Shown piece by piece: positions 15,648 to 22,149 of a stretch of 24,796 nt of DNA (within the stretch, counting starts at the first letter, position 1; every line of letters begins with the position of its first letter). The DNA comes from Candidatus Heimdallarchaeota archaeon. GTDB taxonomy: Archaea > Asgardarchaeota > Heimdallarchaeia > JABLTI01. The stretch lies in assembly GCA_030614005.1 (NCBI GenBank), contig JAUWKS010000046.1:1-24796 (forward strand). The letters run 5' to 3'. A program made the translations under genes and the position numbers. A model generated the notes under the pieces. The model saw nothing but the letters and a program-made list of their open reading frames with translations, had not been told where the DNA came from and searched no databases.

Positions 15648-17153
15648 TTACTTCATTATTTTCTTCTGCATTATTGTAGCGATTTTCGTTAATGGTATTA
15701 TTTCTTGTTCGCCAGAAATAATATTTCGTAAAGTTACAGCATCATTTGCGAGGTCTTTCTTACCAACAATTATCATCCATTCGACCTTTATTCTCTCAGC
15801 ATTTTCAAAGTGTCGCTTCATTTTCCAGCTAAAGGGATTTAAGATAACTCTCAATCCTTTTGCGCGTAGTTTATTTGAAAGATCAATTATTATTGAAAGA
15901 TCATCTAATTTTATTGGAGCAATATAAACATCACAAGTTTCCATTTTTGGATATTCTACTTCTAAGTCGCTCATCAACTCCATTAGCACTGTTTCACCGA
16001 AACCAAATCCTACTCCTGTAAGTGGTTGACCACCTAGAATTGCCACCAAATCAGCATATCTGCCTCCACCGGCAATTGCTCGTGGAAGAATCCCCTCTTT
16101 ACTCCAGGCTTCGAAAATAATTCCAGTATAGTAATCTAACCCTCTCGCTAAACTTCCATCATAAATAATGAAATCAGTTATTCCAAAGCTATCTAGAAGT
16201 ATAGCTAAATCTTCGAGATTCTTCAATGCTTCACCGGAATTTTCGCCAGGATAAAGCTTTTTGGCTTTCTTAATGAAATTCTTTGGAGAATCTTTAATTT
16301 CAGACAATTCATACAAGATTTCTGCTTGCTCATTTGAAATTTCTAGCTTTTTCAAAGCATCAATTAGTGATGCTTTACGTATTTCCTCGAATCCATCAAA
16401 TATTTCTTCTGTAACTTTCGTTTTGGGAATTTTCTCAAATATTGATTCATTTGGTTTTTTTACATTGCGAATTGTTAGAGCAATATCAATTATTTGATCC
16501 TCGTCAAAAGCTCCTTTGAGTATTTCTTGAATACGTTCTTGAAACAACTTGCCCTTTCGATCAAATAACCTGAAAACGGCTAAAAAATCATTGATTTCAA
16601 GAGAGAGCATAAATTGTTGCATAAACTCTCTGTCATTAACTTGAACAACAAATTGTTCTTTGGACAATCCACATTCATTAATTATTCTCGCTAGAATGGT
16701 TATTATTTCTGCATCTGCATAAATTTCATCTATTCCTAAAATATCTATATTATATTGCCAGAATTCTTTTACTCTTCCTCTTTGGAGTGTTTCATCACGA
16801 TAACATTTTGGAAATGAAAACCAGCGAATTGGTTTTGTGTAGTACTGCTGTTTTGCTGCAAGCATTCGAGATAAGCTTGGAGTTAACTCGGGAATAAGAA
16901 CGAGCTCTTGACCACTTCTACTTTCAATTTTGAAAGTTTCTTTAATTAAGCCTTCACCAGATTTTAGCTCATACAACTTTCTTAGTTCAATGGATGGGGA
17001 TACATATTCAGCATATCCATACTCATGAGAGATTCGTCGCATTGTCTGTAAAACAAAATCTACTTTTGCGTAATCTTCTGGATAAAAATCTCTGAAACCA
17101 GCTGGCCTGCCTACTTTTAGTTTCTTCATTTCTTCTTCTGTCAAATGAAACAC
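15648..17153 (-). CDS. hisS: Histidine--tRNA ligase
   Basis: GFRDFYP, LIPELTPSLSR, motif 2 YRDETLQRGRVKEFWQ, ARGLDYYTG, GGGRY, C-terminal anticodon-binding domain. True start may be TTG 17144 (GAGGTG 6 nt upstream). Confidence 0.97.
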   Translation of the reverse strand: MFHLTEEEMKKLKVGRPAGFRDFYPEDYAKVDFVLQTMRRISHEYGYAEYVSPSIELRKLYELKSGEGLIKETFKIESRSGQELVLIPELTPSLSRMLAAKQQYYTKPIRWFSFPKCYRDETLQRGRVKEFWQYNIDILGIDEIYADAEIITILARIINECGLSKEQFVVQVNDREFMQQFMLSLEINDFLAVFRLFDRKGKLFQERIQEILKGAFDEDQIIDIALTIRNVKKPNESIFEKIPKTKVTEEIFDGFEEIRKASLIDALKKLEISNEQAEILYELSEIKDSPKNFIKKAKKLYPGENSGEALKNLEDLAILLDSFGITDFIIYDGSLARGLDYYTGIIFEAWSKEGILPRAIAGGGRYADLVAILGGQPLTGVGFGFGETVLMELMSDLEVEYPKMETCDVYIAPIKLDDLSIIIDLSNKLRAKGLRVILNPFSWKMKRHFENAERIKVEWMIIVGKKDLANDAVTLRNIISGEQEIIPLTKIATIMQKKIMK

Positions 17154-17478
17154 CTCAGATCTTTCTTGGAAGAATTTTTTCTTTCAACTAATATAACTTG
17201 TTTATTGGATGAAAAAATCTCTTCAGCTGTGGAACAATATCTAGTATAAAATCTTAGCTTTTCAATTTTATTATTAGTGAAGTCGATCCCACATTAAATT
17301 TCACCTAATGAAAACACAAAATTAGATTTATTTAACTATTTCCCTCCAAGGTAGAGAGAATAAATAAAGTTAAAAAATTAATAATATAGTTAATTAGCAA
17401 TGAGTGTTTCTAAATAGTAAACCAAATGTTTAAAAGATTAGAGAATCAGTGTTCATTGAAAAGTGAAGGATTCAGCTA

Positions 17479-17922
17479 ATGGGTTTCTTAAGAACTACAA
17501 CCGTAGAAGCGATAATGATTAAACCTGAAATAGTGGACGAGAATACAAACTTCGTTGAAGTAACTAAAATACTGCTTAAAACAAAGCGAGGGTGTGTTTT
17601 TGTGACAAGATTTGGGAAATTAATTGGAATAATTACAGATAGAGACATTCAAAGATTGATTTTAAAAGATGGAGGAATCATCTCTCCTGAAACTACTGCA
17701 AAAGAATTCATGATAAAACCAGTTGTTTCAGTAAATAGATCAACCTCTATTGATGAAGCAGATCAAATTATGCATAAGGAAAAAGTAAATCGATTAGCAG
17801 TTATAGATTCAAACAATAACGATGAGATTATTGGATTAATTGATTATAATTCAACACACTCTGAGATAGTAACAAAATTCGCAAAATCATTATTGCATCG
17901 AAATCAATACAAAATAAGATAA
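17479..17922 (+). CDS. Stand-alone CBS-pair protein
   Basis: Two CBS repeats: IMIKP...GKLIGIITDRDI and FMIKPVVSV...VNRLAVID...IIGLI. Confidence 0.88.
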   Translation: MGFLRTTTVEAIMIKPEIVDENTNFVEVTKILLKTKRGCVFVTRFGKLIGIITDRDIQRLILKDGGIISPETTAKEFMIKPVVSVNRSTSIDEADQIMHKEKVNRLAVIDSNNNDEIIGLIDYNSTHSEIVTKFAKSLLHRNQYKIR

Positions 17923-18002
17923 GAAAAATCAAACAACATTATTCTAAATTTAAAAAACAAAAAATGGGATTAGGTAGAAACCTAATTCCAAATATAAATC
18001 AA

Positions 18003-19526
18003 TTACCCTAAACTGCCAACTTCTTTTTCTACTTCTTCAAGAATTTCACATGATTTGACCAATGCTTTCATAGCATTGTGATCGTCGAACAATGGTCTAT
18101 CCTCATCAAGGAAATCAACATGTTTGCGAATAATTTCTTTGGCTTTAGTAACCCCATCACCAAATTTGAACTCTCTAAAGTCTAATGCTTGTGCAGCAGC
18201 CATATATTCAATGCCTAATACACCATATGCATTATCCAAGATTTGATTGTTCTTTAAAGCAGTATTCATACCCATTGATACAAAGTCTTCTTGATCTGCA
18301 GCAGCAGGAATAGACTGAATGCTTGCAGGAGCTGATAAAATTCGCATTTCAACGATTTGCATACCTGCAGTATATTGGCTTAACATTAAGCCAGACATTA
18401 AACCTGCGTTTTTGGTTAAGAACGGTGGTAAACCTACACTGAGTGCTGGATGGTTTAATCTGTTCATTCTTCTTTCAGACATAACACAAATCATGGTTAC
18501 TGCAACACCGGCCATATCCATTGGTAATGAAACAGGTGTTCCTTGAAAGTTTGCACCAGTGATAGTTAATTTTTCGTCTGGGAAGAAGACTGGATTATCT
18601 CCGACGCCATTTAGTTCGATTTCGACTTGTGAGCGAGCCCAAGCTAATGCGTCATGTGCTGCACCAATTACTTGAGGAGCGGAACGCATAGAGTAAGCGT
18701 CTTGTACTTTTACTTTCAATTTTGCTTCATACAAGTCTCCGCCTTTGAAAAGTTTGGACAAGGCTCTTGATGTTCTTATTGCTCCTGCGAATCCCCTAAT
18801 TTTATGTAATTTTGGAGTGTAAGGTTTCATATTACCCATTAAAGCTTCAATTGACATTGCACAAGCGATTTCTGCTTGTTTCATGAAATTCAATGCATCA
18901 TACAACCAAAGAGCACTCATTCCCGTAAGGAAATTAGAACCATTAATTGCTGCTAATCCATCTCTGGGTTCTAATCCAGGGACTTTTATCCCTGCTTTTT
19001 CCATTGCCTCTTTTCCAGAGATTAATTTACCCTTATAGAAGGCTCTTCCTTCGCCCATAAGTAGTAAAGCAATTTGTGACATAGAACACAAGTCACCAGA
19101 AGCACCAACAGAACCCTTTTCACAGACTTCAGGAGTGACGCCTTTATTTAACATTTCAACCATTGTTTCAGCAATAATCACTCTGTTACCAGAGTTACCA
19201 TGAGCGAGAACATTAATTCTACCCAGTATTGCAGCTCGAACATGTTCGATTGGTGCTGCTTTTCCAATACCAGCAGCATGATTGTAAATCAAATATTTTT
19301 GGAATAAATTTACTTCTTCACCTTTAAGAAAAGTTTCACTGAATTCGCCGATTCCAGTAGTTATTCCGTACATTACTTCATTTGCTTCGATTTTTTCTTC
19401 GAGCATATCTCTGCATTTTTGCATGCGTTTAATCGCATCAGGATGTAACTTTACTTTTTCATTGTGTCGTGCGACTTTTACAACATCTTCAATTGTTAGT
19501 CCAGCACCTTCTATTGTATAGGTCAT
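18003..19526 (-). CDS. MIO-dependent aromatic amino acid ammonia-lyase (HAL family, divergent subtype)
   Basis: [18 protein letters not shown] (MIO-forming ASG), GLAAING, QDAYSMRSAPQ, DNP, QEDFVSMG. Likely start ATG 19526 (MTYTIEG; AAGGTGG upstream) rather than track GTG 19622. Confidence 0.93.
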   Translation of the reverse strand: MTYTIEGAGLTIEDVVKVARHNEKVKLHPDAIKRMQKCRDMLEEKIEANEVMYGITTGIGEFSETFLKGEEVNLFQKYLIYNHAAGIGKAAPIEHVRAAILGRINVLAHGNSGNRVIIAETMVEMLNKGVTPEVCEKGSVGASGDLCSMSQIALLLMGEGRAFYKGKLISGKEAMEKAGIKVPGLEPRDGLAAINGSNFLTGMSALWLYDALNFMKQAEIACAMSIEALMGNMKPYTPKLHKIRGFAGAIRTSRALSKLFKGGDLYEAKLKVKVQDAYSMRSAPQVIGAAHDALAWARSQVEIELNGVGDNPVFFPDEKLTITGANFQGTPVSLPMDMAGVAVTMICVMSERRMNRLNHPALSVGLPPFLTKNAGLMSGLMLSQYTAGMQIVEMRILSAPASIQSIPAAADQEDFVSMGMNTALKNNQILDNAYGVLGIEYMAAAQALDFREFKFGDGVTKAKEIIRKHVDFLDEDRPLFDDHNAMKALVKSCEILEEVEKEVGSLG

Positions 19527-19742
19527 ATTTTTCCACCTTGAGTGAATAATTGTTAAAGTATTTGACACAAGTTTAAAATCTTTATCTAGAAAGTATGGGA
19601 TGAGGTCGTTTCGCTCTCCCACAATTTACCCACAAAAAGTGATTTTACGAATTCTTACGTATAACCTGAAATTTTTTTCTCAAAAAAAGTATATAGTAGT
19701 TTAAGACTATAGTTATTGTGATAGAATAGTGATTGATGGAAC

Positions 19743-20243
19743 ATGAATTCATTGTTTTTTATTAAGAAAAGAAAGTTAATGTCAATTCTAATATTTGTAA
19801 TTATTTTACTAGGATTTCAAGCTAAAAACATTTCTGGACATATTCCAGGCAGATTCTGGTTAGCTTATGATTTTGCAACTGAGACACTAAGCATAGATAT
19901 TGAGCACCCCAGAATGTATCCCGATTTACATTACATTGATAATGTGGTAATATGGAAAAATGATGTACTTGTTCGAAATGAAACTTATACTAGTCAACTT
20001 GATGACAATTATCATCTCTATTTCGTTATCAATGCTTCTCATTTGGACGTATTCAAGGGTTATGGTCGCTGTAATATTGGAGGAAATGCAACAGATACTA
20101 TTACAGTTATTGATCCTAATGCACCTTCGGTATCTTCATCTTTAGGCTTTATATCAGGATTCTCAATTTGCTTAGTTATGTTGGGTATTGGAACAATAAT
20201 TCTAGCAACTTCTATTAATAACAGATACAAAAGAAAGAATTAG
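19743..20243 (+). CDS. Secreted, C-terminally membrane-anchored protein with superoxide reductase (desulfoferrodoxin Fe-domain)-like motifs
   Basis: Signal peptide (KKRKLMSILIFVIILLG), then GHIP...EHPR...LHYID...RCNIGG, then a TM helix and basic tail NRYKRKN. Confidence 0.55.
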   Translation: MNSLFFIKKRKLMSILIFVIILLGFQAKNISGHIPGRFWLAYDFATETLSIDIEHPRMYPDLHYIDNVVIWKNDVLVRNETYTSQLDDNYHLYFVINASHLDVFKGYGRCNIGGNATDTITVIDPNAPSVSSSLGFISGFSICLVMLGIGTIILATSINNRYKRKN

Positions 20244-20296
20244 TAATACTAGTTTTTTCTTTATTTCGAATTGAAGAAACTGGCTAAAAAAAAATT

Positions 20297-20403
20297 TGGT
20301 GCAGAGAGGGAGAGTTGAACTCCCAGCTCAGGAGCCACAATCCTGAATGTTGTCAGTGTACTTCAGAGAGAATGCTTTTCACTAAATTTACACCATTTCA
20401 GCC
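20297..20403 (-). tRNA. tRNA-His(GUG)-like element; 3' two-thirds canonical, 5' half abnormal (intron-containing or degenerate)
   Basis: Minus strand: anticodon arm CAGGA-TT GTG GC-TCCTG (anticodon at 20336-20338), variable AGCT, T arm GGGAG-TTCAACT-CTCCC, acceptor 3' strand TCTCTGC, A73, encoded CCA at 20297-20299. Candidate 5' part G-GCTGAAA-TG-GTGT (20390-20403) pairs with D-stem ACAT but leaves a 39-nt D-loop. Confidence 0.7.
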
Positions 20404-20430
20404 AATTGGTTAATTCAATTTTTATCACAA

Positions 20431-22149
20431 TCAGGAGACTGCTTTTACGATGCTTCCATCAATTACCTTTGCAGCTATTTTCTCTATATCGGTATAAATT
20501 ATTCTATCGTAAGTTAATGTTGGAATAATGGTTCTGATATATTGATAAGCTTTGAAAGTCTTATCTCCTAGAGCATCTTCTGGAGTTAAATTTTGAGTTT
20601 CGCATCTTAGATCAACACCTTGTGCTGCTAACATCATTTCTATAGCAATGATGTAGACTAAATTTTCATTTATGGCCACAACATTTCTTGCTGCAATTGG
20701 ACTCATGCTAACATGATCTTCTGCATTTGCGGATGTTGGAATTGAATCTATGGACGCAGGGGAAGCTAATACTTTGTTCTCAGAAGCTAGTGCTGCTGTA
20801 ACATATTGTGGCATCATAAACCCACTATTTAACCCTAAAGCTTCTCTGTGGATTAGAAATGCACCCAATCCCTCATTCCTAGAGCCGTCAACTAATTTTG
20901 CACAACGTCTTTCCGCAATATTACCTAATTCAGACATTGCTATTGCTAGATGATCCATAGCAATTGCTATTGGTTCGCCATGAAAATTACCACCAGAATA
21001 AATATCAAATTCTAATGGATTTTCCCTCTTAATGAATATCAATGGATTATCTGTTGCTGCATTTATCTCTCGAGATAATATTGTTTTAGTATTATCCATT
21101 ACATCACTGATTGGTCCTAGTACTTGTGGGGAGCATCGAATTGAATAATCATCTTGTAATTTTGGCAGTGTTTTTATGAAGGTGTTCTTTCCTAAACCGC
21201 ATTTTGGACAGGTCCAATCTTCTGGCAGATCCTCAAAAAGAGTCCATTCATTAATTCCGCGATTTGTATCACCCATTTCGGAATCGTAGTAGTATCCACA
21301 AAATTCTCCAAAACAAGTATAGACATCTCCATAGATTTTCACTAGTTTACTCCCTTTATAGAATTCTCTTATTTTTCGAGCAATTGCTATTTGCCCTGGG
21401 TGATGTCTAGCTAAATGTATTCTCTCATCAAACTGTTGTTTAGCAGCTTTTAGAGCTTCCATTGTTAATACAAGCGCTATTAGTGAATTCTCCAATAAAT
21501 TATACGAATCCTTTATTGCCATGCAAGCAATTCCGGCAGAATATTGTACACCATTATTTAAAGCCAACCCTTCTTTATATGATAATTTTGTAATTGGTAT
21601 ACCAGCTTTTTCTAAGCCATCTTTTGCATCAAATATTTTACCTTTATATTTTAAATTCTTATGACCATCACCTATCATTGCTAATGCCATATGTGAAAGT
21701 TGGGCTAAATCACCACTCGCGCCAACAGATCCTTTACATGGAATGATTGGTAATACATTGTCATTTATCATAGCCATTAGATTCTCCATTGTAGAGAGTT
21801 TACAACCAGAATGCCCTCGAGCCAATGCAGCAACCCGCAAAACCATCATTGCTTTTACCTGTTCATCTTTTGCCGGTTCACCCACTGCGACAGAATGGCT
21901 CCGGATTAAATTTATCTGTAATTGCTCAGCATCTTTCTCCCGGATTACGATGTCCCTTAGAGAACCGAAACCAGTAGTAATTCCATAGACTTTCTGTCCT
22001 GATTCCACAGCTATTTCAATCGCTTTTCTAGCTAATCGTACTTTTTTCTTAACTGGTTCCGAGAGAGTTAATTGGTAATTATTTCTCACAATGTTGCATA
22101 CATCTTCATGTGACAAACCTTTTTCTTTAAGAACAATAGTTTTTGCCAA
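20431..22149 (-). CDS. hutH: Histidine ammonia-lyase with internal rubredoxin domain
   Basis: [15 protein letters not shown] (HAL-type His), [47 protein letters not shown]; about 52-aa rubredoxin insert. TTG start with AGGAG upstream. Confidence 0.9.
21170..21325 (-). other. Rubredoxin domain inserted in-frame in the ammonia-lyase
   Basis: [48 protein letters not shown]; contains the rubredoxin pattern L-x3-W-x-C-P-x-C-G and CGYxYD...GD...FEDLPEDW. Confidence 0.92.

Follow-up and report, generated by a model that had tools for sequence, protein, structure and literature searches.

A probable decaying duplicate of an intron-containing tRNA-His gene behind hutH1 in a Heimdallarchaeota genome

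A short element behind a histidine ammonia-lyase gene of a Candidatus Heimdallarchaeota archaeon is probably a decaying duplicate, or pseudogene, of an intron-containing tRNA-His gene that has moved by duplication; this reading, like the splicing, the lack of function and the order of events that go with it, we infer from sequence comparison. The element lies in the window, which here means the entire 24,796-nucleotide stretch of DNA that was analysed (contig JAUWKS010000046.1, called C94). The window belongs to a metagenome-assembled genome of 3.6 Mb (G000) that is 90% complete and has an estimated contamination of 3.4%, and its two closest relatives, CSMAG_879 (G001) and HM7_B34 (G010), are both deposited as Candidatus Heimdallarchaeota. 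A preliminary description of the window had listed five options for the element, two of which, a non-canonical intron-containing tRNA and a decayed copy, hold together.

By descent the element is a tRNA-His gene: it has a GUG anticodon, and the cloverleaf around it is homologous to that of functional tRNA-His genes. It runs from 20402 (position 1) to 20297 on the minus strand. Exon 1 (positions 1-15, 20388..20402) comprises the 5' acceptor strand with a private G6A change (20397), U8 G9, the D-stem strand 10-13 and A14 A15, and matches the three intact copies described below save at position 6. Exon 2 (positions 16-76, 20297..20355) carries the anticodon at 20338-20336, A73 at 20300 and an encoded CCA at 20299-20297. 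The anticodon arm, T arm, A73 and CCA are all canonical. Re-reading of the sequence bore out the preliminary description of the 3' part and its CCA, of a gene start 28 nt past the hutH stop, of a D-loop region of 39 nt without GG, and of acceptor mismatches at 3:70 (U-U) and 6:67 (A-C), which leave five of the seven pairs found in the stem of a functional tRNA. Neither ARAGORN nor Rfam reports a tRNA-His in the unspliced window; with 32 nt removed from the element, ARAGORN calls tRNA-His(GUG).

The surroundings of the element are conserved. The order is hutH1 (histidine ammonia-lyase, 20431..22149, minus strand), the element, a 166-aa gene on the opposite strand, hutH2 (18003..19622, minus strand), which is the second gene of histidine ammonia-lyase type in the conserved cluster, a CBS gene and hisS (15648..17153, minus strand), which encodes a 501-aa HisRS of the long type that, in the genomes compared, goes with an A73 tRNA-His without G-1. 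The gene hutH1 is the upstream neighbour of the tRNA-His site in nine relatives as well as in G000, and the clustering of tRNA-His with two histidine ammonia-lyase genes and hisS (15648-22149 in the window) recurs across the family. hutH1 itself contains an inserted rubredoxin domain (residues 277-324), and its counterparts in relatives of the family are similar in length.

A DNA search for related copies returned three close ones, on contig C64 of the same genome, in G001 and in G010. All three have the same 106-nt layout as the window copy, and in each of them GG is present and the acceptor stem is free of mismatches. Five intronless tRNA-His orthologues in the genus have a D region that is shorter by exactly 32 nt, and taking 32 nt out after A15 leaves a 7-nt D-loop like theirs; three further species of the genus have a tRNA-His intron at 37/38 instead. 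The difference in length, a register scan and pair counts over the four copies together point to a 32-nt D-loop intron (20356..20387, minus strand), most likely at 15/16, a cut site favoured by both homology and geometry. The 15/16 register places the central helix on positions 10-13 with four of four pairs (three of four in G001) and gives every copy a 3-nt bulge, a 5-bp inner helix and an outer helix of 0 bp. In the window copy, exon bases 20393-20390 pair with intron bases 20361-20358 to form the central helix, and 20386-20382 pair with 20366-20362 to form the inner one, in which the four copies display one compensatory change. The motif is of the relaxed kind (4-bp central helix, 3-nt bulge, inner helix), which two-subunit endonucleases are able to cut (PMC5829648), not the strict BHB with both bulges and an outer helix. 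In computed folds, by contrast, the 15/16 central helix loses out to one displaced by a single base, which would put the cut at 16/17; either cut removes 32 nt.

The BHB trials of the preliminary description gave no clean loop because the helix used there, AGTG/CACT, is private to the window copy, while the conserved motif is that of positions 10-13. As a central helix AGTG/CACT was rejected, being found in no other copy. The helix does exist, as does the CTCTCTG repeat reported alongside it, but neither appears to carry meaning: both were made by private substitutions of the window copy, and a 7-nt direct repeat of this sort arises in 29% of dinucleotide shuffles, which is chance level.

The 15/16 geometry is repeated in a tRNA-Gly intron of the same genome and in three 29-nt tRNA-His introns of family f3. 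Within that family, L091, L092 and L094 have 29-nt tRNA-His introns at 15/16 that differ from each other, and L090, L093 and L095 have inserts of about 39 nt near 25/26; in G017, two tRNA-His copies lie 3 kb apart and their introns differ. G000 encodes two EndA paralogues, on C82 and C9, one of them with a Tyr-His-Lys-type catalytic stretch, as well as RtcB, and the intron would be removed by a two-subunit splicing endonuclease acting at the relaxed bulge-helix motif, the exons then being joined by RtcB. A search for the intron sequence elsewhere in G000, which bears on transposition between tRNAs, gave no significant match. There is a remote chance that the insert is not spliced at all, the functional tRNA of the intact copies having an enlarged D arm: the outer helix is absent, the central helix is weak, and some Asgard D-arm insertions without a canonical motif may not be introns, according to a preprint (10.64898/2026.10.13.758758). 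That said, the insert varies where the exons do not, its inner helix is kept by way of the compensatory change, and its geometry is that of the other 15/16 introns. Moreover, a 32-nt insert adjoining G18 G19 would block the tRNA elbow.

Read as an intron-containing gene, the window copy has taken on changes of its own. Six of its private changes fall in the exons, namely G6A, G19A (20353), G28A (20344), U38C (20334), C48U (20325) and G70U (20303), and three in the intron; the three intact copies together have one private exon change and six in the intron. The exon counts (6/74 against 1/222) differ at a Fisher p of 0.001, a value overstated by the relatedness of the sequences. Within the window copy, exons and intron have changed at the same rate (6/74 and 3/32), whereas in the intact copies the exons have been spared (1/222 versus 6/96, p 0.004, again overstated by kinship, only four intron-bearing copies being compared and all of them related). 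Three of the changes are damaging and uncompensated: two break acceptor pairs, and the private G19A removes the second G of G18 G19. None of the damaging bases is conserved in the three intact copies, and in the 25 intact relatives read the acceptor stem has 6-7 pairs and GG or its equivalent is always present, with a GC-C variation in one f2 copy. The acceptor pairing probability falls to 0.06, compared with 0.98 in intact copies, and the fold z-score is -1.3, compared with -3.6 to -4.2.

Some features do speak against decay. The anticodon, both hairpin arms and the CCA are intact, and the spliced form is still accepted by ARAGORN. The window copy might then be a weakened yet working second tRNA-His, cut from hutH1 read-through, so that supply would follow histidine catabolism. 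Besides the intact anticodon, T arm and CCA, this is favoured by G28A, which converts a G-U pair to A-U, by C48U, which fits A15, by a splice motif that can still be drawn and by the G that now stands ahead of position 1. We regard it as very unlikely all the same, given two uncompensated acceptor mismatches and a lost G19 that set the copy apart from the 25 intact relatives, a predicted misfold, a genome without a Thg1-like repair enzyme, and the ruin of the same site in G010. The G ahead of the 5' strand (20403), although present as the preliminary description had it, derives from a 4-nt insertion and does not occur in the intact orthologue.

That insertion belongs to a wider rearrangement of the leader. 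In nine relatives, tRNA-His is preceded by a conserved T-rich TATA motif 32-41 nt upstream. The window leader, from the hutH1 stop to the gene (20403..20430, minus strand), measures 28 nt, as against a leader 73 nt longer in G001, and does not contain the TATA motif; at the junction, the sequence between two similar A/T-rich repeats appears to have been deleted, with 4 inserted nt that supply the G at -1. A genome-wide TATA regex over the tRNA leaders of G000 was noisy, about half of them being without a match, and the call of promoter loss therefore rests on the comparison with orthologues. The window copy is left with no promoter of its own, and read-through from hutH1 is possible, such that the copy may be transcribed as the hutH1 3' end.

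The search for another tRNA-His proposed in the preliminary description was successful, for an intact paralogue is found at C64:3436-3331, with seven of seven acceptor pairs and GG. This copy has a TATA-like motif of its own, in common with the syntenic copy of G010. Together with the lack of conservation of the damage, it largely bears out the plain-pseudogene outcome that had been foreseen as one possibility. The retained intron argues that the C64 copy was not made from a mature tRNA. As an observation on its surroundings, the gene content on either side of the C64 gene (600-11300) is unlike that in G010, as in an insertion hotspot, and the flanking genes encode a 900-aa beta-propeller protein, a beta-lactamase-fold protein, an aldo-keto reductase and a solute-binding protein.

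Since tRNA-His stands behind hutH1 in nine relatives, the window site is taken to be the ancestral one. G001 has an intact tRNA-His that is syntenic with the window site, and G010 has its intact gene at a C64-type site. The ancestral site of G010 retains a short leader like that of the window and a 35-nt tRNA-His remnant, as would be left if the gene had lost the part between two of its CTGAG repeats (0/5000 shuffles). This remnant (L116:2679-2713; contig C13 of G010, near 30678) has a new GC-rich hairpin, which arises from four changes within six bases. The intron variants group according to site, that of the window with that of G001 and that of C64 with that of G010, and three stages can be lined up: intact (G001), decaying beside an intact new copy (G000) and remnant (G010). 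Trees of the three genomes conflict, hutH1 grouping G000 with G010 and hutH2 grouping G001 with G010. G001 is 64% complete and its contig ends 7 kb short of the C64-type site, so a second copy there could be unassembled.

The course of events may be pictured as follows. The tRNA-His of the family would have sat behind hutH1 under its own promoter, and an ancestor of G000, G001 and G010 would have gained the 32-nt D-loop intron. The whole gene, intron included, would then have been copied to a new site of the C64 type with another promoter, after which the old copy could lose its promoter and mutate freely. In G000 the presumed outcome is a copy in which two acceptor pairs are mismatched, G19 has become A and the 5' strand is predicted to misfold, and in G010 only a remnant; the working tRNA-His of the G000 organism would be supplied by C64.

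It could be asked whether the pairing of a damaged and an intact copy is an artefact, through an assembly error or through the binning of C64 and C94 from different organisms, in which case the window copy would be the sole tRNA-His. The genome is assembled from a metagenome and its estimated contamination has been given above. The prospect nonetheless appears remote: an ENA assembly (L127), whose reads may be common to both assemblies, carries the identical element, C64 and C94 both have 34% GC and both share 127-nt overlaps with other contigs of the bin, and G010 independently has a C64-type gene and a ruined ancestral site.

Two further options of the preliminary description, half of a split (trans-spliced) tRNA and the att scar of an integrated element, are not supported and have next to no likelihood. 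The acceptor mismatches would agree with either, and a two-subunit Asgard EndA could in principle process split tRNAs (PMC5829648), but the homology of the 5' part to exon 1 of the intact copies is plain, and a scar would duplicate the 3' end, not an entire gene with its intron. A search of the 90% complete genome for a separate 5' half yielded nothing beyond tRNA-Leu genes and two coding-like stretches that have no D stem, and no partial 3' copies were found in G000. Viral contigs scanned for the tRNA-His 3' end as an att site gave no match. Scans of metagenome contigs with two patterns had no hits; a Dependentiae match proved to be coding sequence and was set aside as chance. Other tRNA oddities were seen elsewhere in G000. 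On C63, one 5' part and one 3' part, both tRNA-Leu-like (near 28622 and 53782), stand 25 kb apart and are possibly the ends of an integrated element; on the minus strand of C55, near 7080 and 8907, are two isolated, att-like tRNA 3' ends (T arm, acceptor strand and CCA); and on the plus strand of C77, near 21485, is a second tRNA-Asn-like gene with an intron, which ARAGORN does not report and which appears to have several mismatches, possibly another decaying copy.

A dead tRNA gene may nevertheless be put to another use. The window copy has a 12-bp helix, with two G-U pairs, between 20407-20396 (-5 to +7) and a segment of the trailer (20278..20289, minus strand), which competes with the acceptor stem. 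It is improbable, though compatible with death as a tRNA, that the gene has been retained to give the hutH1 mRNA a structured 3' end, and equally improbable that the new helix there keeps RNase P and RNase Z away from the acceptor stem and closes a long stem by which the transcript is protected or ended. The helix occurs in the window copy alone, its duplex energy (-16.9 kcal/mol) places it above all 32 other tRNA genes of G000, and it stands out from trailer shuffles (p 0.001-0.003). On the hutH sense strand the two non-Watson-Crick pairs are both G-U, the G010 remnant likewise folds into a new stem (p 0.034), and convergent gaps in G000 are often structured (38% with z below -2). On the other hand, the stem was noticed post hoc and has a p of 0.04 against whole-gap shuffles; the nine in-gene substitutions stabilise the new fold no more than random ones do (35% of simulations were as stable); the 3' arm extends beyond a T9 tract after the CCA (20286..20294, minus strand), a likely terminator judging from archaeal U-tract termination, and may be untranscribed; and the stems of G000 and G010 have no common sequence or structure, while a template-switch mutation could yield such repeats. 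The helix may thus be an early reuse as a hutH1 3' stem, the product of a template switch, or chance.

The prospects are poorer still for a regulatory role, in which the hutH1 mRNA would have recruited the retired tRNA-His as a histidine-sensing RNA element for its 3' end. It is just as hard to credit that the kept GUG anticodon arm is bound by an anticodon-reading, G-1-independent HisRS, or that the RNA switches between a tRNA-like fold and the closed 12-bp stem and so links histidine breakdown to supply. The location and, weakly, the stem are in keeping with such a role, and the loss of the anticodon arm in G010 weighs against it; the tRNA-mimic option of the preliminary description finds little support on the same evidence.

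One character of the decaying copy is not a product of decay. Every one of the 25 intact tRNA-His genes that were read in families f1, f2, f4 and f6 has A73, with A or T at -1, and A73 in the window copy is therefore no sign of damage. Family f3 has G-1 and C73 in six tRNA-His genes. Thg1 (PF04446) was found in none of 77 Heimdallarchaeia genomes, but it was found in 14 of 300 from the phylum and in the control. The HisRS proteins of A73 families are about 500 aa long with a single motif-2 pattern, whereas those of f3 have 437-449 aa, a different pattern and 23-27% identity (16 proteins from five families, which are not independent). The A73, the lack of an encoded G-1 and the absence of Thg1 together suggest that this Heimdallarchaeia lineage likely charges tRNA-His without G-1. 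The "eukaryote-type" A73 of the preliminary description is thus real and lineage-wide, but without Thg1 the arrangement is closer to G-1-independent systems than to the eukaryotic pathway.

Taken alone, the element is unremarkable, probably a tRNA pseudogene whose intron is of a known kind. It illustrates neatly how the gene for an archaeal tRNA that is essential and single-copy can change its place, the stages being laid out across three sister genomes, and it warns that genomes of this sort look to standard tools as if they had no tRNA-His. Of more importance than the pseudogene is the division between A73 without G-1 or Thg1 in four families and G-1/C73 with a different HisRS in f3. Reviews hold that archaea use C73 and, where G-1 is not encoded, have Thg1 (PMC3245924, PMC4338351). 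Known tRNA-His systems without G-1 are those of some Alphaproteobacteria and protists (PMC3064791, PMC4338351), and a literature search found no published account of A73 tRNA-His without G-1 or Thg1 in Heimdallarchaeia. Charging without G-1 would probably amount to an undescribed histidine identity rule in archaea close to the eukaryotic root, and if true would bear on when A73 and the dependence on Thg1 arose.

Each part of the picture has counterparts in known systems. Asgard tRNA D-arm introns are already published (Goswami et al., 10.64898/2026.10.13.758758; Valentin-Alvarado et al. 2024, PMC11291895) and resemble the present one in being short (median 22-23 nt there, 32 nt here), missed by standard finders, recently gained on a shallow branch and accompanied by two EndA paralogues; here, the gene is in addition duplicated and the window copy is decaying. 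In the main text of the preprint, no mention of tRNA-His or of the locus described here was found. The tRNA-Glu D-loop intron of Methanopyrus kandleri, with its relaxed BHB (HBh', hBH, BHL) and (alpha-beta)2 EndA (Kaneta et al. 2018, PMC5829648), likewise has a 4-bp central helix, one clean 3-nt bulge, an inner helix and no outer helix, and differs in that the intron described here is at 15/16, uses the D-stem strand 10-13 as central helix and is known from its sequence. Pseudogenes of tRNA that stem from duplication and turnover, known chiefly from eukaryotes (PMC2888827, PMC4981973), also involve a redundant copy, a lost promoter and uncompensated stem mismatches; the present case is archaeal, and its three stages (intact, decaying, remnant) are spread across sister genomes. 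As to histidine identity, Caulobacter crescentus (PMC3064791), Acanthamoeba and Trypanosoma (PMC4338351) share with the lineage, the intact C64 gene included, A73, no encoded G-1, no Thg1 and a longer, divergent HisRS. Compared with Caulobacter, the lineage is archaeal, has G1-C72 in place of G1-U72 and a 7-nt D-loop, and is so far known through its genes.
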